Notes: generated by a model from the sequence alone, not told the origin. Counted from the first letter of the stretch, positions 4,050 through 63,374 are shown. The stretch is 64,000 bases of DNA from Alphaproteobacteria bacterium (GCA_044372405.1 JBILRW010000004.1:7171-71170), one strand, 5' to 3'. Numbers and translations are program-made.

Positions 4050-4108
4050 AAATATATCATAATCAGAATATATTGAAAATGGGATAATCTATCACGGTCA
4101 GCAAAAAC

Positions 4109-4230
4109 AGGACTTACGCAGAACCTTTGTCATTGCGAGCGCAGCGAAGCAATCCAGGAAGGCCGCCACTGGAAAGACTGGATTGCCACGCCTCCTGCGG
4201 AGGCTCGCAATGACGTTGGGCGCAAGTCCT
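4109..4230. repeat. type-1 palindromic element (RPE-like), copy 1
   Basis: aggacttacgcagaac-gtcattgcgagc...ctggattgccacgcctcctgcggaggctcgcaatgacg...cgcaagtcct; terminal inverted repeats plus internal palindrome; 9 related copies in window. Confidence 0.85.
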
Positions 4231-4236
4231 GAGGCC

Positions 4237-7155: not shown

Positions 7156-7197
7156 GGGCGGGGAAAAAATCGTTTTGTGTCACTGTATTCCTTCAGA

Positions 7198-7316
7198 ACT
7201 TAGGCAGAACCTTCGTCATTGCGAGCGAAGAGAAGCAATCCAGAAACGCCGATACCAGAAAGACTGGATTGCCACGCCTCCTACGGAGGCTCGCAATGAC
7301 GTTCTGCGTAAGTCCT
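7198..7316. repeat. type-1 palindromic element, copy 2
   Basis: cgtcattgcgagcgaagagaagcaatccag...ctggattgccacgcctcctacggaggctcgcaatgacgttctgcgtaagtcct between fabZ and tRNA-Arg. Confidence 0.85.
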
Positions 7317-7397
7317 ATCCTTAGTCCCATACCAGATTATCATGGGGGGGACAAATGGTTTGTGGGGGCGTGCAGGGCTGTTTATTTTTGAAAAACC

Positions 7398-14848: not shown

Positions 14849-14900
14849 GGTGATGATGGCCAAGGGATTTTATAAAGCCTGTGGGGCACCTCTATTAGCC

Positions 14901-14990
14901 GTCATTGCGAGCGCAGCGAAGCAATCCAGAAAGGCTGCTGTTCCCGGAAACCCTGGATTGCTTCGTCGCGTTGCTCCTTACAATGACGAA
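14901..14990. repeat. type-1 palindromic element, copy 3 (degenerate second arm)
   Basis: gtcattgcgagcgcagcgaagcaatccag...ctggattgcttcgtcgcgttgctccttacaatgacgaaaaa. Confidence 0.8.
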
Positions 14991-15026
14991 AAATTGGGGT
15001 TATTATGTAGAGGTTTTGAGCTGATT

Positions 15027-16929: not shown

Positions 16930-17257
16930 AAAAGGCGGGGTCGGGGCAGCAGGATTTGTCCCCCGGGTCAAGGGCGAGACGCCAAAAAAGTTGCGTAGCA
17001 AAGCCCCGAAGGGGCGGTCTTTTTTGGTGCGAGGCGAAGCGGACCCTTGAGGCGGGGGACAAATTCTGCTGGGTGGGAGCCTTTTCCTTGTGGGCCGAAC
17101 GCGGCTCCCGCCCCCACATTCAGGTAACAGGTATCAGGTTGCAGGTAACAGAAAACCCCGTCCTCTGGGGCTTGTTATTTCAAGGATACGTCTTGCTCTA
17201 CTTTTTTTCCTGTCACCTGTCACCTGTCACCTGTCACCTGATTCACCCCGCCACGTT
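16930..17257. repeat. ~325-bp composite element copy A (conserved 190-bp core plus heptad-repeat hairpin)
   Basis: ~90 percent identical to 37874-38197; hairpin arms caggtaacaggtatcaggttgcaggtaacag (17120-17150) and cctgtcacctgtcacctgtcacctgtcacctg (17208-17239); internal long-range pairing cagcaggatttgtcccc with ggggacaaattctgctg. Confidence 0.85.
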
Positions 17258-18579: not shown

Positions 18580-18804
18580 GCGATTTAATTGTCCGTCATT
18601 CCGGACAAAATGAGCGAAGCGAGTGCAGAGCCGGAATCCAGCGCAACTGTCAAAAGGCCCAGCCTTTTGCCGGTATATTTTTGAAAAACAAAGAACAAAA
18701 CGCCTCGCGTTTTGGCATATGTGCTGGATCCCGGATCGGCGCTCACTGCGTTCGCTGGTCCGGGATGACGAAAAACATTAATTTAGTGGACAATTAAATC
18801 GACC
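18580..18804. mobile_element. type-2 MITE-like element, copy 1 (core 18594-18770)
   Basis: 13-bp terminal inverted repeats cgtcattccggac / gtccgggatgacg; internal 80 bp is the reverse complement of the internal part of the copy at 60128-60305; nested in an outer 14-bp inverted repeat cgatttaattgtcc. Confidence 0.85.
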
Positions 18805-24210: not shown

Positions 24211-24226
24211 AAGGCCCCTCTCAAAA

Positions 24227-24331
24227 CCTCAATGTTTCGTCTTTGCGAGCCTCCGTAGGAGGCGTGGCAATCCACTCTTTCCTTTGTCGGCCTTTCTGGA
24301 TTGCTTCGCTGCGCTCGCAATTGACGTTCTG
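24227..24331. repeat. type-1 palindromic element, copy 4
   Basis: cgtctttgcgagcctccgtaggaggcgtggcaatcca...ctggattgcttcgctgcgctcgcaattgacgttctgcgtaagtcct. Confidence 0.85.
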
Positions 24332-24430
24332 CGTAAGTCCTGAGACATAAAAAATGGCTCTGTTGTCTAACAGGGGCCTGGGCCACCATCTGTAACAAAA
24401 GTCACTTTTTGCAAAAAAAAGGTGAAAAAG

Positions 24431-24865: not shown

Positions 24866-24995
24866 GGCACCTCTAAAAACCCCCAATTTTTCGTCATTGC
24901 AAGTCGCAACGCGACGAAGCAATCCAGGGTTTTCGGGGGCTGTGGCCTTTCTGGATTGCTTCGCTGCGCTCGCAAAGACGGTTTTTAGAGGTGCC
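24866..24995. repeat. type-1 palindromic element, copy 5 (both arms of gaagcaatccag type, outer IR ggcacctctaaaaac)
   Basis: tttcgtcattgcaagtcgcaacgcgacgaagcaatccag...ctggattgcttcgctgcgctcgcaaagacggtttttagaggtgcc. Confidence 0.8.
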
Positions 24996-25086
24996 CTTTC
25001 TGATGAACACCCCGATGATGAACACCCCGACTGGACAATGTTTTGCCGCCGGGATAGGGTAGACGAGACGATTGAGTAAGGTCCCC

Positions 25087-32060: not shown

Positions 32061-32180
32061 GGATCTAAAACCCTCAATTTTTCGTCATTGCGAGCCTCCG
32101 TAGGAGGCGTGGCAATCCAGGATTTCGGGAGCTGTAGCTTTTCTGGATTGCTTCGCTGCGTTCGCAAAGACGGTTTAAGA
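32061..32180. repeat. type-1 palindromic element, copy 6
   Basis: ccctcaatttttcgtcattgcgagcctccgtaggaggcgtggcaatccag...ctggattgcttcgctgcgttcgcaaagacgg. Confidence 0.85.
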
Positions 32181-34097: not shown

Positions 34098-35276
34098 CTA
34101 ACGGATAATGCCTTCTTGGTTGTGGTTGAGGGCAACACCAAACTCTGGGGCAAACCAGGGGGTTAACCCAAACAACTCCTCGTTTTGCTGTTTTTGTCTT
34201 TCCTGATAGTTTCTAAGACAGGTTTGTGAGGTTTGGGCCATGCTTTCTAAAATGGCGCGGCGTGTTGTTTCTGGTTGTAATATCTGAAGGCTGCCCCCCT
34301 CGGTTGCGGTCACTATGACCTTTATTTTGCTATCATCCAGAAAGGCGTTTAGCCCCCGTCCCCCTGGAAGAAGCAGATTAATCGTTCCTGACTCATCCAC
34401 CGTTAAGGAATCATCGCCTGCTTGACAGGATCCCCCCAGTTCATTAAGGTTACGAACTGTTGTATTGTAGAGATCTTTATTGCCTGTGGTGATATTGGCA
34501 AGAAGCATAATACCACCAGCAATCCCACAAGCAGTAAAAAAAGCCTGATTGTTTTCTGAAGTAAGTTTAGACCTGATCGCGCTCCTGTCCTGATCATACG
34601 CCCCCAGGGGATACGTTTCACCCATGGTTTGTTTGAGATGCTTCAGTAATAAACCCAGTTTATCATCGGTCTTGGGGTATCTGTCAAATATTCCCCCAAC
34701 GATATTGCGGGGCCAAAGCGAAAGCTGTTGGCCTTCAGAGGAAAATGCGTTGTGCCGTATCCTTGAGATAAAGAAATCCCGGAATGGGTGGTTTTCCCCC
34801 ATAGCCTTTTTCAGGTCATCAAAAAATCGTTCTACTTTCGTTCCTTCACCGTTTTTAGGGTATCGTTCTTCTATGAGCTTGGTAAGAGCTATCTGAAAAG
34901 TGACTATGTTTTCTTCTGAAAAAGGCTCGGTCATTTCAGAGATAGAATCATCGTTAAGCAACGTAGAAATAGCCTTCAGAGTATCGTCCCTTTGCCTGCC
35001 GGTCAACGCAGGGGAACCGATATACAAGCATAGGTTATCCACTTCAAATGCAGAAGAGCCAATATCAGTATGAGCAAAACCAAGACCAAAACTATGGTTG
35101 ATAGTATGACATGCAAGCAGATTATTCAGGGCTTCTGCCAAGGCTTCTCTTTGCTCATCAGGAAGGTTACGTATATGGTTGACCAATACATCAGCCTCTT
35201 GTGAGCTTCCTACTCTTTGCCTAATCTCTAAAAATTTGGGAAGCACTGAAAAAATGTCGTTAGGAATGCCCTTCAT
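34098..35276 (-). CDS. hypothetical protein (AT-rich orphan, 392 aa, no recognisable domain)
   Basis: long uninterrupted ORF with composition clearly lower in GC than neighbours; sits between phaC and tRNA-Ala; soluble, no signal peptide. Confidence 0.55.
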   Translation of the reverse strand: MKGIPNDIFSVLPKFLEIRQRVGSSQEADVLVNHIRNLPDEQREALAEALNNLLACHTINHSFGLGFAHTDIGSSAFEVDNLCLYIGSPALTGRQRDDTLKAISTLLNDDSISEMTEPFSEENIVTFQIALTKLIEERYPKNGEGTKVERFFDDLKKAMGENHPFRDFFISRIRHNAFSSEGQQLSLWPRNIVGGIFDRYPKTDDKLGLLLKHLKQTMGETYPLGAYDQDRSAIRSKLTSENNQAFFTACGIAGGIMLLANITTGNKDLYNTTVRNLNELGGSCQAGDDSLTVDESGTINLLLPGGRGLNAFLDDSKIKVIVTATEGGSLQILQPETTRRAILESMAQTSQTCLRNYQERQKQQNEELFGLTPWFAPEFGVALNHNQEGIIR

Positions 35277-35515: not shown

Positions 35516-35591
35516 GGGGGTGTAGCTCAGCTGGGAGAGCGCCTGCTTTGCACGCAGGAGGTCATCGGTTCAATCCCGTTCACCTCCACCA
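35516..35591 (+). tRNA. tRNA-Ala (anticodon TGC)
   Basis: GGGGGTGTAGCTCAGCTGGGAGAGCGCCTGCTTTGCACGCAGGAGGTCATCGGTTCAATCCCGTTCACCTCCACCA with G3:U70 identity pair and encoded CCA. Confidence 0.9.
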
Positions 35592-37873: not shown

Positions 37874-38197
37874 GAAAAGGCGGGGCGGGGCAGCAGGATT
37901 TGTCCACCGGGTCAAGGGCGAGACGCCAAAAAAGTTGCGTAGCAAAGCCGCGCAGCGGCGGTCTTTTTTGGTGCGAGGCGAAGCGAACCCTTGAGGCGGT
38001 GGGCAAATTCTGCTGGGTGGGAGCCTTTTCCTTGTGGGCCGAACGCGGCTCCCGCCCCCACATTCAGGTAACAGGTTGCAGGTAACAGGTAACCCAGCCC
38101 TCTAGGGCTTGTTATTTCGCTGGTACGTCTTGTTCCACTCTTTTTTCCTGTTACCTGTTACCTGCAACCTGTTACCTGATTCACCCCGCCGCGTTTT
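37874..38197. repeat. ~325-bp composite element copy B
   Basis: ~90 percent identical to 16930-17257 including heptad hairpin arms 38065-38093 and 38147-38178. Confidence 0.85.
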
Positions 38198-41931: not shown

Positions 41932-42235
41932 CACACTCCCTGCTGGCGAGATTTTCAAATTCCGCCCAACTCATAAGGGGTGCAGGCCGGTCTGTGACAC
42001 AGTAAAAATATGATAACTGACTCTCAGTGAGGGTTAGGCACCCCACAAGCAGAGCCATCTGTTTCTGTGGTGTCTAGCACCAAAAACTGAGAAGCTGAGA
42101 ACAATCCTCAAGCGTAAATAAGAGCATCTGGTGGATGCCTTGGCGATTGCAGGCGATGAAGGACGTGCTAGGCTGCGATAAGCAGCGGGGAGGGGCCAAG
42201 ACCCTTTGATCCGCTGATTTCCGAATGGGGGAACC

Positions 42236-42335
42236 CACCTTTCAGGTGACAGGTGACGGGTGACAGGTAACAGGTTTTGCATTGCGCAGGCCTGTCACCT
42301 GATACCTGTAACCTGTCGCCTGATCTAGGTATTCT
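42236..42335 (+). other. 23S rRNA intervening sequence 1 (helix 9 position), heptad-repeat hairpin
   Basis: arms caggtgacaggtgacgggtgacaggtaacagg / cctgtcacctgatacctgtaacctgtcgcctg replace helix 9. Confidence 0.8.
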
Positions 42336-42729
42336 TTGGCTGAACACATAGGCCTTAGAAAGCAAACCCAGTGAACTGAAACATCTCAGTAGCTGGAGGA
42401 AAAGACATCAACCGAGATTCCGTAAGTAGTGGCGAGCGAACGCGGAACAGCCCAGTGCTCTCTCGAATGTAACTGGAACGACTTGGAAAAGTCGGCCATA
42501 GTGGGTGATAGCCCCGTACAGGTAAGAATAGAGAGAGACTCGAGTAGGGCGGGACACGTGAAATCCTGTCTGAACATGGGGGGACCACCCTCCAAGGCTA
42601 AATACTCGCAATCGACCGATAGTGAACCAGTACCGTGAGGGAAAGGCGAAAAGAACCCCCATAAGGGGAGTGAAATAGAACCTGAAACCGGATGCTTACA
42701 AGCAGTTGGAGCGGGCGCACCCGAGGGCT

Positions 42730-42860
42730 GCGCCCAGGTAACGGGTAGCAGGTAACAGGTAACAGGTAGAAACTTTCGGGTCATAAACTTTTGTTAAATT
42801 GATCTGAAATTTTTCTTCCTGTCACCTGTCACCTGTCACCTGTCACCTGGCCGCGCCCTC
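42730..42860 (+). other. 23S rRNA intervening sequence 2 (helix 25 position), heptad-repeat hairpin
   Basis: arms caggtaacgggtagcaggtaacaggtaacaggtag / cctgtcacctgtcacctgtcacctgtcacctgg with AT-rich 50-nt loop, at the helix-25 IVS site known from Salmonella. Confidence 0.8.
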
Positions 42861-43808
42861 CGGCGCGCCCGTGACAGCGTACCTCTTGTATAATGGGTCC
42901 GCGACTTAGTGTAGCAAGCAAGGTTAAGCCGATAGGTGGAGCCGAAGCGAAAGCGAGTGTGAATAGCGCGTTTAGTTTGCTGTATTAGACCCGAAACCAA
43001 GTGAGCTAACCATGGCCAGGCTGAAGGTTGGATAACACCAACTGAAGGGCCGAACCCACGTCTGTTGAAAAAGACGGGGATGAGCTGTGGTTAGGGGTGA
43101 AAGGCCAATCAAACTTGGAAATAGCTGGTTCTCCGCGAAAACTATTTAGGTAGTGCGTCAGACGAATACCATGGGGGGTAGAGCACTGAATCGGCTAGGG
43201 GGGCGCGAGCCTTACCAAACCGAATCAAACTCCGAATACCCATGAGTACTATCTGGCAGACAGGCATCGGGTGCTAAGGTCCGGTGCCGAGAGGGAAACA
43301 GCCCAGACCGCCATCTAAGGTCCCCAAGACTATGTTAAGTGGGAAAGGATGTGGGAAAGCCATGACAGCTAGGAGGTTGGCTTAGAAGCAGCCATCCTTT
43401 AAAGAAAGCGTAATAGCTCACTAGTCTAATCAAGCATTCCTGCGCCGAAGATGTAACGGGGCTCAAACATAGCACCGAAGATGCGGGCGCGCCTATGGCG
43501 CGCGGTAGCGGAGCGTTCCCTAAGCCGTCGAAGCAGTCCTGTCAGGGGCTGTGGAGGTATGGGAAGTGAGAATGCGGACATGAGTAGCGACAAACAGAGT
43601 GAGAGACTCTGTCGCCGAAAGCCCAAGGGTTCCTATCCAATGCTAATCAGGGTAGGGTTAGTCGATTCCTAAGGCGAGGCCGAAAGGCGTAGTCGATGGG
43701 AACACGGTTAATATTCCGTGACCTTTGGTCCGTGACGGATCGAAACGATTGTACTTTCTTATCGGATTGATAAGTGCAGTCCAACGGTTCCAGGAAATAA
43801 CGGACCAG

Positions 43809-44380
43809 CTTGGGATTGTTTAAGGGAAAAGAAAAAAGCACGCCAGAGGCGACGTGCTAGAAATTTATTCGTTGTTGCGTCGACGATCAATTTCGTCGAG
43901 TGCAGCGAATGTGATGCATCCTGGAAGCATCGAAATTGCCCCAGGAATGTTTAAAACAAAAAGAAAAAAGAATCTCCATCCTCCTTCAACAAGGATCATT
44001 TCTGCTCCTTGCTTTGGAAATAGGGAAATTCTGTCGGTTTTAAACTCCTTCTCCAGAAGAATTGCGGAGAAGTAAACAAAAAACACGACTGTAACTAAAG
44101 AAGAAACGACTAAATTTAGGCGTCTTTTTTTGTACTTATCCATGGTGTTAAGTTATTTAACTAAGGTTTATTTTGACATTATGCAGTGCAGTGCAGTGCA
44201 GTGCAGTGCAGTGACATTTGTCACATTACGAAAAATAATTTCCCTTAAACAATCCCAGGCGTTCAGGTGACAGGTAACGGGTAACAGGTGACAGGTTGTG
44301 GGTTACAGGTTATGGGTAGATTTTCTACCTATTTTCTGTTTCCTCTTCCTGTTACCTGTCTCCTGTTACCTGTTACCCGG
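43809..44380 (+). other. 23S rRNA intervening sequence 3 (helix 45 position), composite ~570 bp
   Basis: 19-bp inverted repeat cttgggattgtttaaggga / tcccttaaacaatcccagg bounds an AT-rich 410-bp module with a 92-codon ORF (43865-44143, minus) and a (GCAGT)5 microsatellite (44183-44207); followed by heptad hairpin 44263-44379. Confidence 0.8.
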
Positions 44381-44649
44381 ACAATGATCGTACCCGAAAC
44401 CGACACAGGTGGGCAGGTCGAGTAGACCAAGGCGCTTGAGAGAAGTATCCTGAAGGAACTCGGCAAATTGCTCCCGTAACTTCGGAAGAAGGGAGCCCGT
44501 CATGAAGGCAACTTTTTGGCGGGGTCACAAAAGAGGGGGTTGCGACTGTTTAACAAAAACACAGGACTCTGCGAAGTCGTAAGACGAAGTATAGGGTCTG
44601 ACGCCTGCCCGGTGCCGGAAGGTTAAGGAAGGATGTGCAAGCATTTGAC

Positions 44650-44729
<80 letters not shown>

Positions 44730-45170
44730 TGAATGGCGTAACGACATCCCCACTGTCTCCAGGATATACTCAGCGAAATTGAATTCCCCGTGAAGATGCG
44801 GGGTTCCCGCGGTCAGACGGAAAGACCCCGTGCACCTTTACTACAGCTTTACACTGGCTCTAGGAATATCATGTGTAGGATAGGTGGGAGACTTTGAAGC
44901 CTTGGCGCCAGCCAGGGTGGAGTCAACCTTGAAATACCACCCTTGATGTTTTTAGGGTCTAACCCAGGTCCGTGAATCCGGATCGGGGACCGTGTATGGT
45001 GGGTAGTTTGACTGGGGCGGTCGCCTCCCAAATGGTAACGGAGGCGCGCGAAGGTAAGCTCAGTACGGTCGGAAATCGTACGTCGAGTGCAATGGCATAA
45101 GCTTGCCTGACTGCGAGGCTGACAAGCCGAGCAGAGACGAAAGTCGGTCATAGTGATCCGGTGGTTCTTC

Positions 45171-45224
<54 letters not shown>

Positions 45225-45253
45225 AACGCCCAAGCGTCCACAGCGACGGCGTT

Positions 45254-45331
<78 letters not shown>

Positions 45332-45339
45332 TGGTACGT

Positions 45340-45380
<41 letters not shown>

Positions 45381-45688
45381 TGCCGTGGGTGTTTGATGAT
45401 TGAGAGGATTTGCCCCTAGTACGAGAGGACCGGGGTGAACGTACCTCTGGTGTACCGATTGTGGCGCCAGCCGCATCGTCGGGTAGCTATGTACGGAACG
45501 GATAACCGCTGAAAGCATCTAAGCGGGAAACCGGCCTCAAAACGAGTCATCGTAGAGCCGTAGTAGACCACTACGTTGATAGGTGGCGTGTGAAAGGGTG
45601 GTAACACCTGAAGCTAAGCCATACTAATCGCTCATCTCTCTTTTGGATTGTTCTCGCGTCTTATGTTTTAACAAAGACGCATCTCATG

Positions 45689-47474: not shown

Positions 47475-48203
47475 TCACAACACCGGCCCTGTTCCCTGGC
47501 CAACGCCTGGGGGATTTTTGAGGGATTTTTGGATAAAGGCCAGGGCGTCTTCGGCGGCCTGGGGCAAAGAGAGTCCGCGCGCCAGTCCTGTGGCCAGAGC
47601 GCTGGAAAGAATACAGCCCGTACCATGGGTGTGACGGGTGGGGATGCGGGGGTGAGAAAAACGGGTTTCTTTGCCCCCTTCCCTTAACACATTCACGATC
47701 ATGGTGCCGTCTTCGTGTCCCCCCGTGATGAAAACAGCGGGGGCGTGAGACAGGGGGAGTAATGCGGCCTCTATGGTGTTGGGTGTCACGCAGGTGATGC
47801 GGGGCAGCAGGTCTTTTTTCAGGATAGACAGCCCGTCTTCATCAATGAGCGGGGCCCCATGACTGGCCCAGAGTATGGGATCCAGCACCACGGGACACGA
47901 AACCTGATCCAAAATTGTTACCAAACATCGGGCAAGGGCGCCGCTGCCCATCATGCCGATTTTGATGGCTTGGGGCGGTGTATCCGCCAGCAGGGTTTCC
48001 ACTTGATCCTGAAACAGCGCGGCGTCCGTGGGCACAATCCGTCCCACCGTCAACGTGTTTTGCACCGTTTGCGCCGTGATCACCGCCAGGGCGTAGCCCC
48101 CCAGGGCGTGAATGGTTTTCACATCCACCAAAACGCCCGCGCCGCCGCCGGGATCAAAGCCCGCCAGGGACAAAACAACGGGGGGTTTGGGGGATTCAGA
48201 CAT
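47475..48203 (-). CDS. thiD: hydroxymethylpyrimidine/phosphomethylpyrimidine kinase
   Basis: VLSLAGFDPGGGAGVLVDVKTIHALGGYALAVITAQTVQNT ribokinase-fold ThiD signature. Confidence 0.85.
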   Translation of the reverse strand: MSESPKPPVVLSLAGFDPGGGAGVLVDVKTIHALGGYALAVITAQTVQNTLTVGRIVPTDAALFQDQVETLLADTPPQAIKIGMMGSGALARCLVTILDQVSCPVVLDPILWASHGAPLIDEDGLSILKKDLLPRITCVTPNTIEAALLPLSHAPAVFITGGHEDGTMIVNVLREGGKETRFSHPRIPTRHTHGTGCILSSALATGLARGLSLPQAAEDALAFIQKSLKNPPGVGQGTGPVL

Positions 48204-49131
48204 TGTCCCCCTGGGGTAAAACAGCGCTTTGGCCCAGCGGGTGACAGGTTTGCAGGGTATCCCGCAAATGATCATCGGGAATGTGGGTATAAATCTGGGT
48301 GGTGGAGAGATCTTCATGACGCAAAATGGCCTGGAGTGTGGGCAGATCGACGCCCCGATGCAGCAAATGCGTGGCCAAAGAATGCCGCAAAACGTGGGCC
48401 GACAGGGGGGGAAGGCCCACCTTGGCCGCTAAATTTTTAAGTTTCAGATCCAGCTGCTGGCGGGTGACGTGCCCCTGGCGACTGCGAGCGGGAAACAAAA
48501 ACGGGCTTTGGGGGCGGGATAAAAAATGGGGACGGACGGCCTGATAGGCCCGCAAAGCCTCTGCCGTCCCGACGGTTAGGGGCAAAAGGCGTTCTTTGCC
48601 CCCCTTTCCCGTGACCATGAGAGAACTCAGATCTTTGGACAGGGCCGAAAGCGGCAGCGAAACCAGCTCACTGGCGCGAAGGCCAACGCCATACAGAAGC
48701 TCCAGCATGGCCAGCAGGCGTTTGTCCTCTGGCGTTAAGGCCCGCTGCAACCAGGCAAAAAGACAGGCCACGTGGTCTTCGGTTAAATAATGGGGGATGG
48801 GGCGGGGTTGCGCGGGGGTTTTCAGGGATTTTGTGGGGTTATCGGGCCGGATGCCTTCCGTTTGTAAAAACAAAAAAAATTGACGCAGAGCCGTAATGGC
48901 GCGGCTGCGGCTTCGGGGGCTAAGGGAGAGGGCCTGAACATAGGCGATGATGTCCTCAGCCGTAACAGATTCCATGGGTTTTTGTGTTTTTTCCAAAAAA
49001 AAGCCAATATCCCGACGATACGCCATAAGGGTATTGGGCGCAGCATTGCGTTCAATGGCCATCATGTCCAAAAAACGCCCCAAGAAGGTCGGCGATACCG
49101 GCGCAGCAAAATCAATGATCTCCGTGGTCAT
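48196..49131 (-). CDS. xerD: site-specific tyrosine recombinase XerC/XerD type
   Basis: N-terminal SAM-like domain (FLDMMAIERNAAPNTLMAYRRD) and catalytic C-terminus with ...HVLRHSLATHLLHRGVDLPTLQAILRHEDLSTTQIYTHI (R-H-R-Y). Confidence 0.85.
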   Translation of the reverse strand: MTTEIIDFAAPVSPTFLGRFLDMMAIERNAAPNTLMAYRRDIGFFLEKTQKPMESVTAEDIIAYVQALSLSPRSRSRAITALRQFFLFLQTEGIRPDNPTKSLKTPAQPRPIPHYLTEDHVACLFAWLQRALTPEDKRLLAMLELLYGVGLRASELVSLPLSALSKDLSSLMVTGKGGKERLLPLTVGTAEALRAYQAVRPHFLSRPQSPFLFPARSRQGHVTRQQLDLKLKNLAAKVGLPPLSAHVLRHSLATHLLHRGVDLPTLQAILRHEDLSTTQIYTHIPDDHLRDTLQTCHPLGQSAVLPQGDNV

Positions 49132-49459
49132 GATCCCCTGCCCCCGATACCAAACGAAAGGTCCGGCTGCAATACGGACAGACGATTTGCCTTTGAGATC
49201 CCATGGCCAGATAAACCTTTGGATGTCCCAAGGGCCCGCCGCCGCCATCACATGAGGGACGCGGGGTTTTGACATCAATAACCTCGAAGGCATCCGCGTT
49301 TGGAGGGGTCAGGGGTGAAACGGATGGGATCATGATACGGGGTTTCCTGGATTTTTCCTGTTTTTTATAAAGGGGTTTGGGGGAAAAATCAATGGGAGGG
49401 TTTAAGTGTTTGTTTTTAGCCTTTCCTTAAAGAATTGGCTTTTATAGTCATAGGATTCG

Positions 49460-49578
49460 GGACTTAGGCAAAACCTTGCGTCTGGCGAGCGCAGCGAAGC
49501 AATCCAGAAATGCCGATACCGGAAAAACTGGATTGCCACGCCTCCTACGGAGGCTCGCAATGACGTTTTGCGTAAGTC
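49460..49578. repeat. type-1 palindromic element, copy 7
   Basis: ggacttaggcaaaaccttgcgtctggcgagcgcagcgaagcaatccag...ctggattgccacgcctcctacggaggctcgcaatgacgttttgcgtaagtc; flanked by direct ATAGGATT. Confidence 0.85.
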
Positions 49579-49619
49579 ATAGGATTGTTTTGGGAAGCCA
49601 TAGAGGAACCACAACCACC

Positions 49620-50228
49620 ATGCGGGTCAAGGTTATTGAGTGTCATCACCAAGGGACCCTATCCATGGACGGGTTATCCGATCTGTTATCGGCGCGTTTT
49701 TTGATGCACAAGCATGATTTGTTTGCGGTGGATGAGGACGGAAAACAGGCTGTTTGGTTGCAAAATTATTACCGCATGAACCCACCGGCGGTTCTGGTTG
49801 GTAAAGGGAATGTGGAAATTTCTCCCCTGGCGATTTTATCGCTGTGCCGGAAAGCCAGCCTGGAATTTTTGCGCGAGATCAAAGAATCCCTGAACCAATA
49901 CAAGCAAAGCATTGCCCATATTAAAAAAGCCGTTCACGTGCCCAGTGGGGGGGAGGTGTGTATTGAACCCAGCCATATGCTGCTGGAGACCTCCGACAGC
50001 CAAGTCTTAATCACCTTGGTGCGTCAAGGGGAACAGGGGATTTTGGTTCTGGATAACATGGTGCCCCGTGTCGGAGATACCCTAACGGCGGAGGCCTTTG
50101 CCCAGAAAAAAGCCATTTATTATCATGATTCCACGGGGCTAAATCATGATATTGTGGCGTTTCACTTGCGGGACCACCCGGATGATCCGGGGCATGAGGT
50201 GCATGTTTTAATTAAGGTGCAGCTTTAA
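49620..50228 (+). CDS. hypothetical protein (202 aa)
   Basis: ORF beginning MRVKVIECHHQGTLSMDGL...; upstream extension of the ORF is translated repeat; no recognisable domain. Confidence 0.45.
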   Translation: MRVKVIECHHQGTLSMDGLSDLLSARFLMHKHDLFAVDEDGKQAVWLQNYYRMNPPAVLVGKGNVEISPLAILSLCRKASLEFLREIKESLNQYKQSIAHIKKAVHVPSGGEVCIEPSHMLLETSDSQVLITLVRQGEQGILVLDNMVPRVGDTLTAEAFAQKKAIYYHDSTGLNHDIVAFHLRDHPDDPGHEVHVLIKVQL

Positions 50229-51987
50229 CATCCTCAATGATCACCTGAACGGTGGGCGTGCTGCCCCAGGTGTCTTTTTTTAAGGTTCCGGCCACCGAAA
50301 GAGGTTTTCCCCGACTGTTAAGTAAGGCCTGACCCATGGGATGATCGGCGCAGCGAAAGGCAATGGCCTTGGATGACCAAGCACGCTGGGGATCCTTCAG
50401 CTGACACCGCACATGGGCCCCGCCCACAACACCCGCAAAGGACACCACCACCTGATGAAACGCAAAACGCGGCTGGGGGTTGCCCACGCCAAAGGGCGAA
50501 AGGCGCTCAATCTGCTCCACCAAAGACAGATTGGCGGCGGTGAGCGGTAGCGATAAATCCAAATCCAAGAGCGGGCGAATGTTATCCCGGGCAATAATTT
50601 CGCCAATGCGGGATTCAAAAAACGCATGGGCCGCTGTCAGTTGATCCGCTGTCACGCTAAAGCCCCCCGCCATGGCATGGCCGCCGCCGGCCAGCAAGAT
50701 CCCCTCTTGCCGCGCCGCCAGGATCATCTGCCCCAGGTGAATGCCCCGAATGGATCGGCAAGAGGCCTTGGCAATCCCCTTATCATCCAGCGCCAAAACC
50801 ACCGCAGGTTTGTGGTAACGATCCTTTAGCCGGCTGGCTACAATGCCGATAACACCCGGATGCCAGCCCTGGCCATAGACCCAGATCATGCTGCCGGTGG
50901 TGCCCTCGGCCTGGCGGATGGCTTGATCCAGGATATCGGCTTCGATGGTTTTGCGCTCGGCATTGTGCAGGGCCAGGGCCTGGGAATACACCATGGCTTG
51001 CTGCGCATCATCACAGCTGAGCAATTTCGACCCCATATCCGATTGCCCCACGCGGCCCCCGGCATTGATATGGGGGCCCAGGATAAAGCCCAGGTGATAG
51101 GGGCTGGGGGCCTCGTCCAAACGAGCCACATCAGAAAGGACCTTTAGCCCCATGTTCATGCGGCGGCCCAACACCTTCAGCCCCTGGGAAACAAAGGCGC
51201 GGTTGATGCCATGCAGTGGCACCACATCACACACCGTTCCCAGCGCCACAATATCCAAGAGCAAGAGTAAATTAGGCTCGGGCTGGGTTTCAAAAAAGCC
51301 TTCTTTTTTTAATGTTTGATTTAACGCCACCAAAAACAAAAACGTCACCCCCACCGCCGCCAGGTGACCGCAGGGGCTGTCTTCATCCAAACGATTGGGA
51401 TTCACCACGGCCACGGCGGGGGGCAAGGCGCTTTCCCCCACGTGATGGTCAATGACAATAACATCCAGCCCCAAATCCCGGGCATAGCCCAGGGGATCAT
51501 GGGCCACAATGCCGCAATCAACGGTAATGACCACCTTCATCCCCAGAGCCTTCAGTTTATCAAACGCCCCCCGATTGGGGCCGTAGCCCTCTGCCATACG
51601 GTCCGGAATATACACCGTCAGCGGCCGGCCCAGCATACTCATATAGCGTTTCAGCAGCGCCGATGATGTCGCCCCATCCACATCGTAATCCCCAAAAACG
51701 GCGATGGCGTCTTTGTTTTTCAGGGCGGCCACCATGCGGGTGACGGCGCGGTCCATGTCCTTTAGGTGGAACGGATCGGGGAGTAACTCCTTCAGCCGGG
51801 GATTCAAAAAAACGGCTGCCGTTTCCAGGGCAATGCCGCGAATGGCCAACAGTTTCCCCACAACCTCTGGCACGCCATGCCGCTGTGCCAGGGCCAAGGC
51901 CGTGCGGTCTGAATAGGGCTTCAGCGACCACAGCCGACCCGTCAGGGAAAGCGATTCATCCAATACATCCATAAAACATCCCTTCAA
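50212..51987 (-). CDS. recJ: single-stranded-DNA-specific exonuclease RecJ
   Basis: 591 aa, DHH motifs FGDYDVDGATS and VIVIDHHV, DHHA1 domain, C-terminal OB fold. Confidence 0.9.
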   Translation of the reverse strand: MKGCFMDVLDESLSLTGRLWSLKPYSDRTALALAQRHGVPEVVGKLLAIRGIALETAAVFLNPRLKELLPDPFHLKDMDRAVTRMVAALKNKDAIAVFGDYDVDGATSSALLKRYMSMLGRPLTVYIPDRMAEGYGPNRGAFDKLKALGMKVVITVDCGIVAHDPLGYARDLGLDVIVIDHHVGESALPPAVAVVNPNRLDEDSPCGHLAAVGVTFLFLVALNQTLKKEGFFETQPEPNLLLLLDIVALGTVCDVVPLHGINRAFVSQGLKVLGRRMNMGLKVLSDVARLDEAPSPYHLGFILGPHINAGGRVGQSDMGSKLLSCDDAQQAMVYSQALALHNAERKTIEADILDQAIRQAEGTTGSMIWVYGQGWHPGVIGIVASRLKDRYHKPAVVLALDDKGIAKASCRSIRGIHLGQMILAARQEGILLAGGGHAMAGGFSVTADQLTAAHAFFESRIGEIIARDNIRPLLDLDLSLPLTAANLSLVEQIERLSPFGVGNPQPRFAFHQVVVSFAGVVGGAHVRCQLKDPQRAWSSKAIAFRCADHPMGQALLNSRGKPLSVAGTLKKDTWGSTPTVQVIIEDVKAAP

Positions 51988-51996
51988 GCAGGGGCA

Positions 51997-52581
51997 TCAT
52001 AGCAAAGTTTGGGGCCAAGTGATGGATTTCATGCGATCTCGTGCGGACTGAGAAATAAAATAACAATCTCCCTCGTCATACTTAGCACCCCAAATGTCGC
52101 ACTTAGGAAATATCCTTTCAACACATTGAAGCCACTCCATCTCAACGCCGCAGCCCACCAGTTCCAAACGCTTTAAATTCGAGAGAGGCCTTATCCAATC
52201 CGTGCTAGAGGGAATCTGAAGGCATATTAAAGTAAGAGCCTCTAAATTCACCAATGATCCTAGAGCATAAAACAAATTGTGATCAAATTTTTTTTCGAAT
52301 ATCGCTTTGTATTTGCGATTAAGTTTATTTGGGTATTTCTGATTCAGATAATATTCGAATGCGTCATCTTCGTATTCGATATCGATAACCAAGCGATTAA
52401 TGTCTGGGGGAATCTCTGAGAAGTTCGTGCATTCCTGGCCATTAAAGACTCTAAAAATATTTTCACATTTTTCATAAGAAAACTTCGTTGTAAAAGCGGA
52501 TTTAGCCATAAGCCCTAAGCACGAAAAACTGTTGAAAGTGGCATCATAGCAAAGTTTGGGGGAAGGGACAGGGGGGATCAT
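51997..52581 (-). CDS. hypothetical leucine-rich-repeat protein (eukaryote-like cysteine-containing LRR), AT-rich
   Basis: LVNLEALTLICLQIPSSTDWIRPLSNLKRLELVGCGV fits LxxLxLxxCxxI LRR_cc consensus; low-GC ORF immediately beside tRNA-Cys; true start may be MAKSAF at 52509. Confidence 0.5.
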   Translation of the reverse strand: MIPPVPSPKLCYDATFNSFSCLGLMAKSAFTTKFSYEKCENIFRVFNGQECTNFSEIPPDINRLVIDIEYEDDAFEYYLNQKYPNKLNRKYKAIFEKKFDHNLFYALGSLVNLEALTLICLQIPSSTDWIRPLSNLKRLELVGCGVEMEWLQCVERIFPKCDIWGAKYDEGDCYFISQSARDRMKSITWPQTLL

Positions 52582-52593
52582 GGAAAAAAACTT

Positions 52594-52667
52594 TGGAGGC
52601 TCGGAAGGGAATCGAACCCCCGTACAAGGATTTGCAGTCCTCTACATCACCACTCTGCCACCGAGCC
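52594..52667 (-). tRNA. tRNA-Cys (anticodon GCA)
   Basis: reverse complement GGCTCGGTGGCAGAGTGGTGATGTAGAGGACTGCAAATCCTTGTACGGGGGTTCGATTCCCTTCCGAGCCTCCA, anticodon loop CTGCAAA. Confidence 0.9.
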
Positions 52668-52720
52668 TTGCATGATTCATTTTATAAAGACCCTGCCGTT
52701 AAAAAGCAAGATGATTGTGG

Positions 52721-52836
52721 AATTTACGCAGAACGTCATTGCGAGCCTCCGTAGGAGGCGTGGCAATCCAGTCTTTTGTGGCGGCATTTCTGGGTTGCTT
52801 CGCTGCGCTCGCAATGACGAACACTTTGCGTAAGTC
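52721..52836. repeat. type-1 palindromic element, copy 8
   Basis: aatttacgcagaacgtcattgcgagcctccgtaggaggcgtggcaatccag...gggttgcttcgctgcgctcgcaatgacgaacactttgcgtaagtc. Confidence 0.85.
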
Positions 52837-52856
52837 ATTGATTGCAAAGGACTTTC

Positions 52857-52894
52857 TGTCACCTGTCACCTGTCACCTGTCCCCCGTCACCTGA
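52857..52894. repeat. tandem heptad array (TGTCACC)x5, single arm
   Basis: ctgtcacctgtcacctgtcacctgtcccccgtcacctg; supplies the last codons (VTGDR-stop) of coaBC. Confidence 0.85.
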
Positions 52895-54060
52895 TCCCAC
52901 ACCATGCTGGCCAGGCTTTCTTTACTTTGGCGGGGAAAGGGGATTTCGTGATGCTCGGTGATGAGGGTTAAGGCATTGTCGGGGCTGTCAAAGGCGGGGG
53001 CATCGGGGGTGTGGGTGTTGGCCAGGATGATGTCACAGTTTTTTTGAATACGTTTGGCGGCCGCTTTGGCCAGGGTGTCCTCAGTTTGGGCGGCAAAGCC
53101 AATGACGCACCGGGGCCGTTGCCCCGCGGGCAGGGCCGCGAGGGTGGCCAGGACATCCACCGTGGGCACCAGGGTTAGGGTCAGGGGGTTGGTTTTGGGG
53201 CGTTTGCCGGAACAAACATCTTCACACCGGTAATCCGCCACGGCGGCCACAGCCAGGCAATAATCAAAGGGCTGGGGGCGGTTTTGAATTTGGGCGAGGG
53301 CGGCGGAGCGCATAGCTTCTGCCGTGGGGGTTTTGATATAGTGAATGCGGGGGGACGTTGGGCGGGGGGCGGTGGTAAACCCCTCCAAAATCACCACCTC
53401 CGCCCCGCGTTCGGCGGCGGCTGCTGCCAGGGCATAGCCCATCTGGCCGCTGCTGGCATTGCTGAGGAAACGCACGGGATCCAGCGGTTCCCGCGTCGCC
53501 CCCACGGTGAGGAGCACCGATTTTCCGGTTAACGTTAGCGGCGCCAGCAGCGCCCCCACAATGGTTTCGGGCTCGGCCATGCGGCCCTGCCCTTCTTCCC
53601 CGCAGGCGGCCTCACCCACGGCGGGTTCAATGACAGAGATGCCGCGTTTTTTTAGGGTTTCTATATTGGCTTGCGTGGCGGCGTGGGCGTACATGGCGGG
53701 ATTCATGGCCGGTGCAACCCACACGGGGGCCGTTGTGGCCAGCAAGACCGCACGGGCCAGATCATCCGCCGCCCCCATGGCCATGGTGGCCAGAAAATCA
53801 GCGGAGGCCGGCGCCACAAGCACAACATCGGCCTCCCGCGCCAGGCGGATGTGGCCCATGGTGGCTTCATCGGTCAGGGAAAACAAATCGGTATAGACGG
53901 GATGCCCGCTTAGGGCTGAGAGGGTCAGCGGACTGATGAACTGCTGGGCCCCCGATGTCATGATCACCTGAACGCTGTGGCCCTGTTTTTGGAGCAGGCG
54001 CAGGACCTCGCAGGCCTTATACGCCGCAACGCTGCCGGTGATGATTAAGAGAACGCGCAT
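52873..54060 (-). CDS. coaBC: bifunctional phosphopantothenoylcysteine decarboxylase / phosphopantothenate--cysteine ligase
   Basis: 395 aa, flavoprotein N-domain MRVLLIITGSVAAYKA plus CoaB C-domain. Confidence 0.9.
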   Translation of the reverse strand: MRVLLIITGSVAAYKACEVLRLLQKQGHSVQVIMTSGAQQFISPLTLSALSGHPVYTDLFSLTDEATMGHIRLAREADVVLVAPASADFLATMAMGAADDLARAVLLATTAPVWVAPAMNPAMYAHAATQANIETLKKRGISVIEPAVGEAACGEEGQGRMAEPETIVGALLAPLTLTGKSVLLTVGATREPLDPVRFLSNASSGQMGYALAAAAAERGAEVVILEGFTTAPRPTSPRIHYIKTPTAEAMRSAALAQIQNRPQPFDYCLAVAAVADYRCEDVCSGKRPKTNPLTLTLVPTVDVLATLAALPAGQRPRCVIGFAAQTEDTLAKAAAKRIQKNCDIILANTHTPDAPAFDSPDNALTLITEHHEIPFPRQSKESLASMVWDQVTGDR

Positions 54061-58917: not shown

Positions 58918-60075
58918 ATGGTCCGATTGGTCGCGTTCCTCTGGATATTAGTGTTAGGCAGCGCGAGCATGGCCCTGGCCGAAATCCCCATTGCCGCCGC
59001 GGGCCCCATGACCGGTCCCTATGCCAGCATTGGGGAGCAACTGCGGCGCGGGGCCAGTATGGCGGTAGAGGACATCAACGCCGCGGGGGGTCTGTTGGGT
59101 CAACCCCTGTCCCTGCGGATTATGGATGATGCGTGTGATCCGAAGCAGGCGACGTTGGTGGCGTCTCAACTGGCCAATGATCATTATACGTTTGTGGCGG
59201 GGCATTTTTGTTCCAGTGCGTCCATTCCGGCGTCCAATGTTTATAACGATGCGGGGATCATTATGGTCTCTCCGGCGTCCACATCCCCCACCCTCACCGA
59301 GCGTAATCTGACCAATATCTTTCGGGTGTGTGGCCGCGATGATCAGCAGGGGGTTATTGCTGCCGATTATATCCGCCGTCATTTTGGGGATCAGAGGCTG
59401 GCCATTATTCACGATAAAACCTCTTACGGCAAAGGCCTGGCCGATGTCACCAAAAAGGCATTGAATGAGGCCGGCCTTCAGGAAATTCTCTATGAAGGCA
59501 TCACCACGGGCGAGCGGGACTTTACGGCCCTGATTACCCGTATGAAATACCATAATATCGGTGTTTTGTACGTGGGGGGATACTTTACAGAGGCCGCTTT
59601 GCTCCGCCGCCAGGCCCATGATCAGGGCCTGAATATCCCGCTGATTTCTGGCGATGCGCTGGTGACGCGGGAATACTGGACCATTGCGGGGAAAACGGGG
59701 GAAGGCACGCTGATGACCTTTAACCCCGACCCTCGAAAAAACCCAGGCGCGGCCAAGGTGGTGCAGGCCTTTCGCGACCAAGGCTATGAGCCCGAGGGCT
59801 ATACGCTCTATAATTACGCCGGTGTTCAGGTGTATGCTGAGGCCGTCAAACGCGCTGGCACCACGGATGCCAAAGCCGTTCGTGATGTTATGCACGGCGG
59901 GACCTTTGATACCTTACTGGGCCCCATTACCTTTGATGCCAAGGGCGATGTGACCAAGCCGCAATATGTGGTTTATGAATGGTCCAAGGGGGAGTATGCG
60001 GAGATTGAGGATGGGGGACGGGGGACAGAGGACGGAAGACAGAGGACGGAAGACGGAGAAAAGAAGGGGAAGTAA
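58918..60075 (+). CDS. branched-chain amino acid ABC transporter substrate-binding protein (LivK/LivJ family)
   Basis: signal peptide, type-I periplasmic binding fold; last ~20 residues EDGGRGTEDGRQRTEDGEKKGK are encoded by a GGACRG repeat array. Confidence 0.8.
   Translation: MVRLVAFLWILVLGSASMALAEIPIAAAGPMTGPYASIGEQLRRGASMAVEDINAAGGLLGQPLSLRIMDDACDPKQATLVASQLANDHYTFVAGHFCSSASIPASNVYNDAGIIMVSPASTSPTLTERNLTNIFRVCGRDDQQGVIAADYIRRHFGDQRLAIIHDKTSYGKGLADVTKKALNEAGLQEILYEGITTGERDFTALITRMKYHNIGVLYVGGYFTEAALLRRQAHDQGLNIPLISGDALVTREYWTIAGKTGEGTLMTFNPDPRKNPGAAKVVQAFRDQGYEPEGYTLYNYAGVQVYAEAVKRAGTTDAKAVRDVMHGGTFDTLLGPITFDAKGDVTKPQYVVYEWSKGEYAEIEDGGRGTEDGRQRTEDGEKKGK
60015..60057. repeat. GGACRG-type tandem repeat array (single arm)
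   Basis: ggacgggggacagaggacggaagacagaggacggaagacggag, same unit family as the hairpin at 9373-9491. Confidence 0.8.
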
Positions 60076-60127: not shown

Positions 60128-60305
60128 CGTCATCCCGGACCAACGAGCGTTAGCGAGTGCCGAGCCGGGATCCAGCACATACGCCAAAACGCGAAGCGTT
60201 TTGTTCTTTGTTTTTAAAGAGTATATCGGCAAAAGGCTGCGCCTTTTGACAGTGGCGCTGGATACCGGATCTGCGTTCGCTAACGCTCACTTGTCCGGCA
60301 TGACG
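60128..60305. mobile_element. type-2 MITE-like element, copy 2
   Basis: termini cgtcatcccggac / gtccggcatgacg; internal region is the reverse complement of the copy-1 interior. Confidence 0.85.
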
Positions 60306-62640: not shown

Positions 62641-63374
62641 GCCAAGACCTCCAAGATTGTCTCTGCGCACCAGGCCGGATGGGTCAGGGGCAACAGATGA
62701 CTGTGGCCCGGATGGATTGCCACCGTTTGGGCGTGGCTCGCCCAGGGGTAGGTGATGATGGGATCGTTAGCGGAGGTTAAGGCACAGAAAATGGGCGGGG
62801 GAGAATTGGATTTATCCACAACGTCATTGCGAGCCTCCGCAGGAGGCGTGGCAATCCAGTCTTTCGGCTCGCTGCATTTCTGGATTGCTTCGCTACGCTC
62901 GCAATGACGAGGGTTATGTGTAAATCCTTGGGAAACCTCTTTTTGCATGGCTTTCAAGGCGTCCTGCAGTATGTTTTGGGGCGTGATGCACGGATAGGGT
63001 CCCCCAGCCCTTTCCTGAAAATCCCGTAACACCTGGGTGGGATTTTTCTCAAAACCCCGCGCCATGGCCTGTAAAACCCGTAGGGGAATCCCCCCGGGAT
63101 TTTGGGGACTGGCCACAAAACAGGGGGCGCTGTTAATGGCAATCCATCGGGCATGAGGGAGCGCCTGATACCCCGAAAAAAAGCCATAAGAATGCCCGAT
63201 CCACAGGTCGTAATCCTCATGTCTCATCCCTAAAAAATCCCAGTTTTCCATAGCTTCACAGTGCCAGGACGGCGGCAGATACCGGATCATCTCCCCCCAT
63301 ATGCCGGGGCCATAGCCCCAACCGTGCACCAGCAACACCCGCATACTATGCCCCAACATAACTGGCGCGACCAT
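62637..63374 (-). CDS. bioH: BioH-like alpha/beta-hydrolase (pimeloyl-ACP methyl ester esterase) carrying an in-frame type-1 element insertion
   Basis: LLVHGWG, nucleophile elbow GHSYG, SAPCF, then after the insert ANDPI (Asp) and HPGHSHLLP (His) collinear with E. coli BioH; residues CERSEAIQKCSEPKDWIATPPAEARNDV are the translated repeat. Confidence 0.65.
   Translation of the reverse strand: MVAPVMLGHSMRVLLVHGWGYGPGIWGEMIRYLPPSWHCEAMENWDFLGMRHEDYDLWIGHSYGFFSGYQALPHARWIAINSAPCFVASPQNPGGIPLRVLQAMARGFEKNPTQVLRDFQERAGGPYPCITPQNILQDALKAMQKEVSQGFTHNPRHCERSEAIQKCSEPKDWIATPPAEARNDVVDKSNSPPPIFCALTSANDPIITYPWASHAQTVAIHPGHSHLLPLTHPAWCAETILEVLA
62808..62927. repeat. type-1 palindromic element, copy 9, inside bioH-like CDS
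   Basis: cgtcattgcgagcctccgcaggaggcgtggcaatccag...ctggattgcttcgctacgctcgcaatgacga; no stop codon in the host reading frame. Confidence 0.85.

Follow-up and report, generated by a model that had tools for sequence, protein, structure and literature searches.

A lineage-specific 547-bp insertion in the recJ promoter region of an alphaproteobacterium carries an orphan gene

What does a short, low-GC open reading frame (ORF) set directly beside a tRNA gene encode, and how did it come to lie there? The question is raised by the window, a 64,000-nt stretch of an Alphaproteobacteria bacterium genome (GCA_044372405.1), in which a first-pass annotation had described positions 51997-52667 as the gene of a eukaryote-like leucine-rich repeat (LRR) protein, with the suggestion of a host-interaction effector acquired horizontally at a tRNA. 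The ~170-aa ORF behind that description is real: reading of the sequence and one of two gene callers place it at 51997..52509 on the minus strand (170 aa plus stop, MAKSAF...WPQTLL), with the peptide LVNLEALTLICLQIPSSTDWIRPLSNLKRLELVGCGV forming residues 86-122. A mechanical reading of the frame starts at 52581 on the same strand and gives 194 aa with the same end at 51997; public gene calls exist for both versions (170 aa and 194 aa; two gene callers), each labelled only 'hypothetical protein'. The ATG at 52509, which has AGGG before it, is likely to be the true start, giving 170 aa. Upstream lies an intact tRNA-Cys(GCA) (52594..52667, minus strand), separated by 12 nt from the start of the mechanical reading and by 84 nt from the ATG. 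The adjacency to a tRNA given earlier (12-80 bp) thus holds, and the interval 51997-52667 lumps ORF and tRNA together.

That the ORF differs in composition from its neighbours was confirmed. Its GC content is 0.39, with a minimum of 0.34 at 52200-52400, against ~0.55-0.60 in the neighbours; GC is 0.34-0.41 across 52100-52600, and 52001-52500 is the lowest 500-nt bin of the whole window (0.392). GC1/2/3 values are 0.42/0.34/0.41. The codon-usage check was made against 23 genes of the window and set the ORF clearly apart (GC3 0.41 versus 0.627±0.053; CAI 0.50 versus 0.687±0.05), its composition and codon usage lying 3.7-4 sd from those genes. The encoded protein is likewise unusual relative to the products of the window genes, both in the summed fraction of F, Y, M, I, N and K (0.35 versus 0.22) and in Cys (4.1% versus 1.0%). 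A second gene of atypical composition was observed at 34098-35276 (minus strand; 392 aa, GC 0.447, GC3 0.43, CAI 0.50), 240 nt from a tRNA-Ala (35516-35591); it matched nothing in Pfam, NCBIfam or PADLOC, and a search for long direct repeats around it found none.

Inspection of the ORF boundaries revealed an exact 22-nt direct repeat (51993-52014 and 52540-52561) bracketing 525 nt of novel DNA (52015..52539, minus strand; GC 0.389), in which a single frame is open from the first base to the last. Counted with one mismatch the repeat extends to 25 nt; its exact 22-mer core, GGCATCATAGCAAAGTTTGGGG, has two copies only in the window, and a repeat pair of this kind was matched in 0 of 100 shuffles. 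Copy B (51993..52014), which reads CCCCAAACTTTGCTATGATGCC on the minus strand, is proximal to recJ and holds a TGnTATGAT extended -10-like motif ~20-30 nt upstream of the recJ ATG. The recJ gene itself, which functions in DNA repair (DHH, DHHA1 and RecJ_OB domains), occupies 50212..51972 on the minus strand, with its ATG placed at 51972 by alignment with relatives. Copy A, the identical 22-mer at 52540..52561 (minus strand), lies 31-52 nt upstream of the ATG of the orphan ORF, whose TGA stop (51999-51997) falls inside the TATGAT hexamer of copy B. Beyond copy A comes the upstream flank of the ancestral recJ promoter block (52562..52578, minus strand, beginning CCCCCCTGTCCCTTC), and beyond the tRNA-Cys lie one ~120-nt copy of a palindromic dispersed repeat (52715..52836) and then coaBC (52873-54060). 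Past the 22-mer, on either side, similarity between the two copies is at shuffle level, which rules out a larger duplication that included the recJ 5'UTR and start codon.

Comparison with relatives, in which both the repeat sequence and the flank at 52562..52578 are kept, showed the site in its empty state. Closest to the window are six genomes, all MAGs of uncultured Alphaproteobacteria, with a RecJ 86-88% identical to its own and isolate names that suggest lake and reservoir samples. All six carry the repeat sequence as a single copy, 27-42 nt before the recJ match, and the window aligns colinearly with them once the insert is removed: the upstream block CCCCCCTGTYCCTTCC corresponds to the flank that stayed with copy A, and the recJ 5'UTR and start to the flank of copy B. 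The orphan gene is absent from all of them, the proposed presence/absence comparison thus finding an intact, single-copy site in six of six. These data demonstrate a lineage- or species-specific insertion of 547 bp in the recJ promoter region, made up of 525 nt of foreign DNA and a 22-nt target duplicate. Within the repeat, AAACTTTGCTATGAT is invariant in seven of seven genomes (the window and the six relatives), and from this conservation, together with its position and resemblance, we infer that it is an extended -10 promoter element (TGnTATGAT). A generic scan for sigma-70 promoters, for which a -35 element is obligatory, passed over the repeat.

An alternative history would make the ORF ancestral, with the relatives having lost it by deletion between the direct repeats, and recombination across the 22-nt repeats would indeed leave exactly the single-copy site that they carry. 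However, the same precise loss would be needed in six relatives belonging to at least three sequence groups, and the two copies in the window are identical, yet species differ from one another at 3-4 of the 22 positions of the orthologous site. The GC3 and codon usage of the ORF are also far from the genome norm, and an HMMER search of 1.84 billion proteins found no homologue elsewhere, which leaves an ancestral origin scarcely credible. No empty-site allele was found within the same species, a search with the RecJ N-terminal fragment giving only matches of at most 61% identity. Taken together, the atypical codon usage, the absence from the six closest genomes and the lack of a homologue in any collection searched support horizontal gain of the orphan gene, as had been supposed at the outset.

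The tRNA-Cys, by contrast with its supposed part as integration hotspot, lies outside the duplicated target. The repeats that bracket the insert correspond to the recJ promoter and not to tRNA sequence, and the 547 bp hold the orphan ORF only, with no integrase. None of the six relatives has any tRNA within ~4 kb of recJ, coaBC and the XerD-like gene described below are both away from recJ in them, and synteny upstream of the conserved promoter block differs in all six. Since no tRNA lies by recJ in the relatives and the synteny there is altered, the adjacency to the tRNA reflects a separate rearrangement. The tRNA-Cys is not the site of integration. Conservation upstream of recJ ends ~17 nt before the promoter-like motif in seven genomes (window 52578-52594; relatives L002-L007), and past this point each group differs, with a ThiF/MoeB-like gene, palindrome-rich spacers or, in the window, the tRNA-Cys; this end of conservation looks like a recurrent rearrangement breakpoint.

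The nearest tyrosine recombinase gene (48196-49293) matches XerD/XerC models best and lies 3.3 kb off, on the far side of recJ. Its ORF (minus strand) comprises 365 aa, of which the models cover only residues ~70-354, so that either the annotated start is too early or the protein is extended at its N-terminus. One copy of the palindromic element (49456-49581) is found just upstream of it.

We next consider what the insert encodes. In the 525 novel bases the other five frames contain 7-16 stops each, and any open frame of this extent arose in 2 of 20,000 shuffles. An open frame so far beyond chance means that the insert is coding DNA, now or very recently. Since no stop occurs within the insert's own bases, it is probably a piece of a larger gene, the stop of which is found only in the duplicated host sequence. 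No known RNA was found in the insert.

Searches for a homologue of the orphan protein were extensive. A word-indexed search across 5.8 billion clusters recovered nothing but the protein itself, to which a filter-only pass of HMMER through 1.84 billion representatives added seven weak matches, none of them a true homologue. Six of the seven were multi-repeat LRR proteins aligned to orphan residues ~80-142, including an NLR (Death plus NACHT), a ROCO protein and a Skp1-POZ plus LRR protein; scores against LRR repeat proteins are inflated by their many repeat copies. Residues 23-64 also matched the repeats of a surface protein of 2251 aa (P0003), a similarity put down to chance and inflated by those repeats. 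Pfam-A hmmscan found no family at E<=1 or E<=10, either with the whole protein or with residues 81-144 alone; the ORF had no credible counterpart in NCBIfam, PHROGs or PADLOC; and for the N-terminal 80 residues no credible match emerged from HMMER, PHROGs and NCBIfam scans. A tblastn search of phages gave no match, and scans of viral and metagenome contigs with the back-translated sequence found no relative.

The C-terminal half of the protein is more informative. Codons 82-140 (52090..52266, minus strand) form an LRR-like module, delineated by motif and weak matches, that consists of an imperfect LRR, a canonical LRR (LKRLELVGCGV), a helix and a cap, 'IFPKCDIW'. Under a strict count of motifs, a single unit, at residue 112, is a canonical LxxLxLxxCxL, and an imperfect one stands 23 residues before it, at residue 89. 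The best PDB matches, both marginal, were the Leptospira proteins LIC11098 (E=0.0087) and LIC12759, with query residues 81-140 aligned to chain residues 336-395/398, that is, to the last two LRRs and the cap, in register through '...RKLLPxCxI'. The same alignment was obtained by tblastn against plasmids, in which Leptospira LRR genes were matched at only E~0.1, and the same LRR-plus-cap module occurs in two metagenomic proteins (P0005 and P0008). A profile attempted from the LIC11098 C-terminus, as an independent LRR cap, recovered only three fragments. AlphaFold2, run with no alignment as there are no homologues to align, was uninformative: pLDDT was 35 over the whole protein and 46 over residues 72-146, and the secondary structures of the two runs contradicted each other. 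Judged on these motifs and matches, the C-terminal half is probably a degenerate LRR of one to two repeats plus cap, of the bacterial 23-residue kind. The product is small and Cys-rich, an unclassifiable N-terminal part of ~80 residues preceding the LRR-like module. Should it be functional, it would most likely be a small protein-binding module; the gene may equally be a young, near-neutral passenger.

For the first-pass reading these results cut both ways. LRR content was confirmed only in part, by one canonical unit, one imperfect unit and a cap-like segment; the suggested HMMER comparison with Pfam LRR models gave no match even at E<=10. The more specific label of a cysteine-type F-box/LRR protein was not borne out: Pfam shows neither an F-box nor LRR_6 in the protein, and bacterial LRR C-termini resemble it more, if marginally. 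The further proposal, of a eukaryote-like F-box/LRR effector carried on an island integrated at the tRNA-Cys and secreted to manipulate a host, would account for a gene that is foreign by composition and adjoins a tRNA, for an LRR-like motif with Cys at the Asn position, for weak matches that include eukaryotic-type NLR or ROCO LRR proteins, and for a window that is itself unusual (dispersed repeats, and a 23S rRNA gene with no 16S or 5S detected nearby). Against it stand bracketing repeats that are recJ promoter rather than tRNA sequence, the lack of an integrase, with the nearby recombinase being XerD-like, a tRNA that is unlinked to recJ in relatives, the absence of an F-box or of any Pfam, NCBIfam or PADLOC match, and a best match among bacterial LRR C-termini. 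Nor did positive evidence of a host-interaction effector emerge, as a simple hydropathy check showed no signal-peptide-like or Sec-type hydrophobic N-terminus, and no secretion system was found among the ten neighbouring genes scanned, which include biosynthetic and flagellar ones. We therefore give this proposal only a slim chance of being right. The lesson is that 'LRR plus low GC plus tRNA' does not here equate to a eukaryote-like effector on an island.

The wider window was examined for the repeats and gene decay that had also been reported. It is repeat-rich as described, while erosion is not evident, CoaBC, ThiD, sulfite reductase, TolB, FliD and RecJ all being intact. About nine copies of a ~120-126-nt palindromic element (CGTCATTGCGAGCCTCCGTAGGAGGCGTGGCAATCCAG ... 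CTGGATTGCTTCGCTGCGCTCGCAATGACG) occur in the 64 kb, in both orientations and mostly between genes (4106-4231, 7192-7321, 14884-15004, 24219-24341, 24876-24996, 32064-32176, 49456-49581, 52715-52836 and 62802-62928); the element looks MITE- or REP-like and had no Rfam family at gathering score. Scattered through the window are tandem arrays of a heptamer, GGTGACA (CAGGTRAC), at 2881-2952, 17109-17240, 38145-38176, 42231-42320, 42723-42847, 44252-44391, 52853-52898 and 60000-60057, of which the array at 52853-52898 encodes the end of CoaBC (...DQVTGDR). Longer repeats comprise a 219-nt direct repeat, 93% identical (16931-17149 and 37875-38093), and a 130-nt inverted repeat, 88% complementary (18618-18747 and 60152-60281). 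The 23S rRNA gene (42108-45648, plus strand) measures 3541 nt against a model of 2925 positions, and its ~600 nt of extra sequence, with three heptamer arrays inside the gene, suggest intervening sequences. The window gave no 16S rRNA match, and a 5S gene appeared neither at gathering score nor, at E<=1, in the 1.3 kb downstream of the 23S gene; the rRNA genes therefore appear unlinked.

To return to the insertion, the same junctions were found in four assemblies from at least three samples: the window, the Logan assemblies of SRR27419722 and SRR32481736, and a JGI contig of sample 3300043437. An assembly chimera is ruled out by these shared junctions, which include two strain backgrounds with diverged flanks. 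The SRR27419722 assembly is identical to the window over 3.2 kb. In SRR32481736 there are 34 mismatches; every one falls in recJ, at 51991 or lower, and 51997-52751 is free of them. For the JGI contig, 13 of 169 sites in recJ and ~2.8% of coaBC are changed, as against one difference in the 525 novel bases (synonymous, at 52348) and none in either repeat. Among the copies, then, the 525 nt of the insert show 0-1 differences against a divergence of 3-8% in the flanks, a significant deficit (Fisher p values of 4e-6 to 7e-8). The JGI strain (L082) also lacks one 7-nt unit of the heptamer array in coaBC (52882-52888), which shifts the stop codon of that gene. A literature search found no mention of the run and assembly accessions.

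Between strains, recJ is a mosaic: over 50823-51996, compared with L083 and L082, tracts that differ by 6-8% (51772-51996 and 50995-51217) alternate with others that differ by 0-0.2%. In both the SRR32481736 and JGI strains a divergent tract starts no more than a few bases from repeat copy B, and most variant alleles in the first 220 nt of recJ are common to L082 and L083. The mosaic pattern indicates frequent homologous recombination in the population, and the near-invariant insert fits a recent origin followed by carriage between strains by homologous recombination. Since recJ is itself mosaic, the low diversity of the insert is no proof of a sweep or of selection.

How the DNA entered may be approached from its ends. 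The account that we favour, and consider reasonably likely, is a one-off illegitimate capture, in which a fragment of a foreign LRR-protein gene would have been taken up at a staggered break in the recJ promoter and fill-in of that break would have produced the 22-bp target duplication. The route could be end-joining or fill-in at such a break, or else recombination over short homology; a dedicated mobile element is the less likely agent. The orphan gene would then be transcribed from the upstream promoter copy A, ~30 nt before its ATG, and recJ would retain its own promoter in copy B and hence not be silenced. Because no terminator-like site was detected between the orphan ORF and recJ, transcripts of the former may also read through into the latter. 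The length of the duplication is unusual and counts against this mechanism; classical transposases are not known to make a target duplication as long as 22 bp.

A related possibility is that the captured fragment is inert, its frame surviving only as the event is recent and no functional protein being made. The frame runs on without a stop until it happens upon one in the host DNA, the copies of the insert in the strains differ by 0-1 substitutions, which leaves too little time for decay, and an LRR part of at most two repeats is too short for a typical solenoid; with no homologues, moreover, evidence of purifying selection is not obtainable. On the other hand, the AGGG and the conserved promoter-like copy that precede the ATG would make transcription and translation hard to avoid, and the insert persists across several strain backgrounds and samples. 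We regard an inert fragment as unlikely, if well short of negligible.

The same ends also invite a reading as a minimal mobile cassette, namely a ~547-bp circle with one gene and a 22-bp att, integrating site-specifically at a matching chromosomal sequence with a recombinase provided in trans; while circular, the unit would draw both the promoter and the stop codon of its gene from the att. Perfect 22-bp direct repeats do surround a unit that is almost wholly one ORF, the stop codon lies in one repeat while the promoter-like motif of the other is upstream of the ATG, and an XerD-like recombinase gene is 3.3 kb away. However, no further copy of either the 22-mer or the ORF turned up in the window, 82 comparison loci, viral contigs or metagenome contigs. 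Exact scans of metagenome and viral contigs for the 22-mer or its 18-mer likewise gave 0 matches, a weak negative in that the metagenome set evidently does not include the insert-bearing JGI sample. The repeat lacks the dyad symmetry that dif or attC sites show, and when 51975-52110 was folded as DNA, neither strand formed an attC-like hairpin at the 3' end (z = 0.22 and 0.77 versus shuffles). Such an att would in addition need to match the host promoter at 22 of 22 positions. On balance a mobile cassette of this sort seems improbable, and very improbable is its strongest form, in which the insert would be the first tiny promoter-targeting gene cassette, inserting in an extended -10 element, duplicating 22 bp and using a recombinase in trans. 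Were that form true, cargo and host gene would both be left with a promoter, and the duplicated site would also provide the stop codon of the cargo.

The locus is a clean natural example of orphan-gene gain, its empty and its filled state both being resolved to the single base. Duplication of a promoter by insertion would offer a newcomer an immediate route to expression without silencing its essential-type neighbour, recJ. The case is useful for thinking about how orphan genes become expressed and opens no new field: a lineage-specific orphan gained by horizontal transfer is of a familiar kind, and one instance makes no new class. The base-exact duplication of the promoter is an attractive detail of this insertion, and its length of 22 bp is unusual.

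Among known systems, transposons and MITEs were rejected as models. Their target-site duplications are short, up to ~15 bp, against 22 bp here, the ends of the insert carry no terminal inverted repeats, and no other copies exist in the window or the 82 loci. Islands linked to tRNA genes share several traits with the insert, which is low in GC, foreign, within 100 nt of a tRNA and flanked by direct repeats at its ends. Such islands are typically several kb or more, whereas the insert is 0.55 kb, has no integrase and is bounded by repeats that are not tRNA sequence, its target being the recJ promoter. Integron cassettes come closer in size and layout, as the insert is ~0.5 kb, nearly all one ORF, and downstream of a promoter. 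Unlike them it is solitary and not in an array, is bounded by an exact 22-nt duplication in place of 7-bp core sites, and has no attC-like folded site; in the absence of a hairpin at the 3' end (z = 0.2 and 0.8 in rounded form) an integron cassette was rejected, and the scanned genes yielded neither an integron integrase nor an attI.

At the level of the protein, the comparison lies between two groups of LRR proteins. With F-box/LRR (FBXL) proteins and their bacterial mimics the orphan shares the Cys at the Asn position and one LxxLxLxxCxL unit. It differs from them in that only this one unit fits the motif, neither an F-box nor an LRR_6/CC-type Pfam match was found (E<=10), and its repeats are spaced by 23 residues; in CC-type LRRs the spacing is ~26 residues. 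The second group is formed by the leptospiral LRR proteins LIC11098, LIC12759 and LIC10831, which correspond to PDB entries 4U08, 4U09 and 4U06 (Miras et al. 2015, as cited in PMC11674859). Their structures and conserved C-terminal region are discussed in PMC11674859, which lists leptospiral LRR proteins with 6-17 repeats and describes them as extracellular and adhesin-like. The orphan protein, unlike these, has only one to two degenerate repeats, an E value of 0.009 and no Pfam match, shows no evident signal peptide or lipobox, and combines the LRR-like module with an unrelated 80-residue N-terminus and a 30-residue tail after the cap; nothing in it suggests an extracellular, adhesin-like role. 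Although it fails curated LRR family tests, it thus appears to resemble the tail of a bacterial LRR protein: as in Leptospira-type proteins that end in ...LLPxCxI[YFW], its residues 81-140 correspond to the last two 23-residue repeats and the cap helix.
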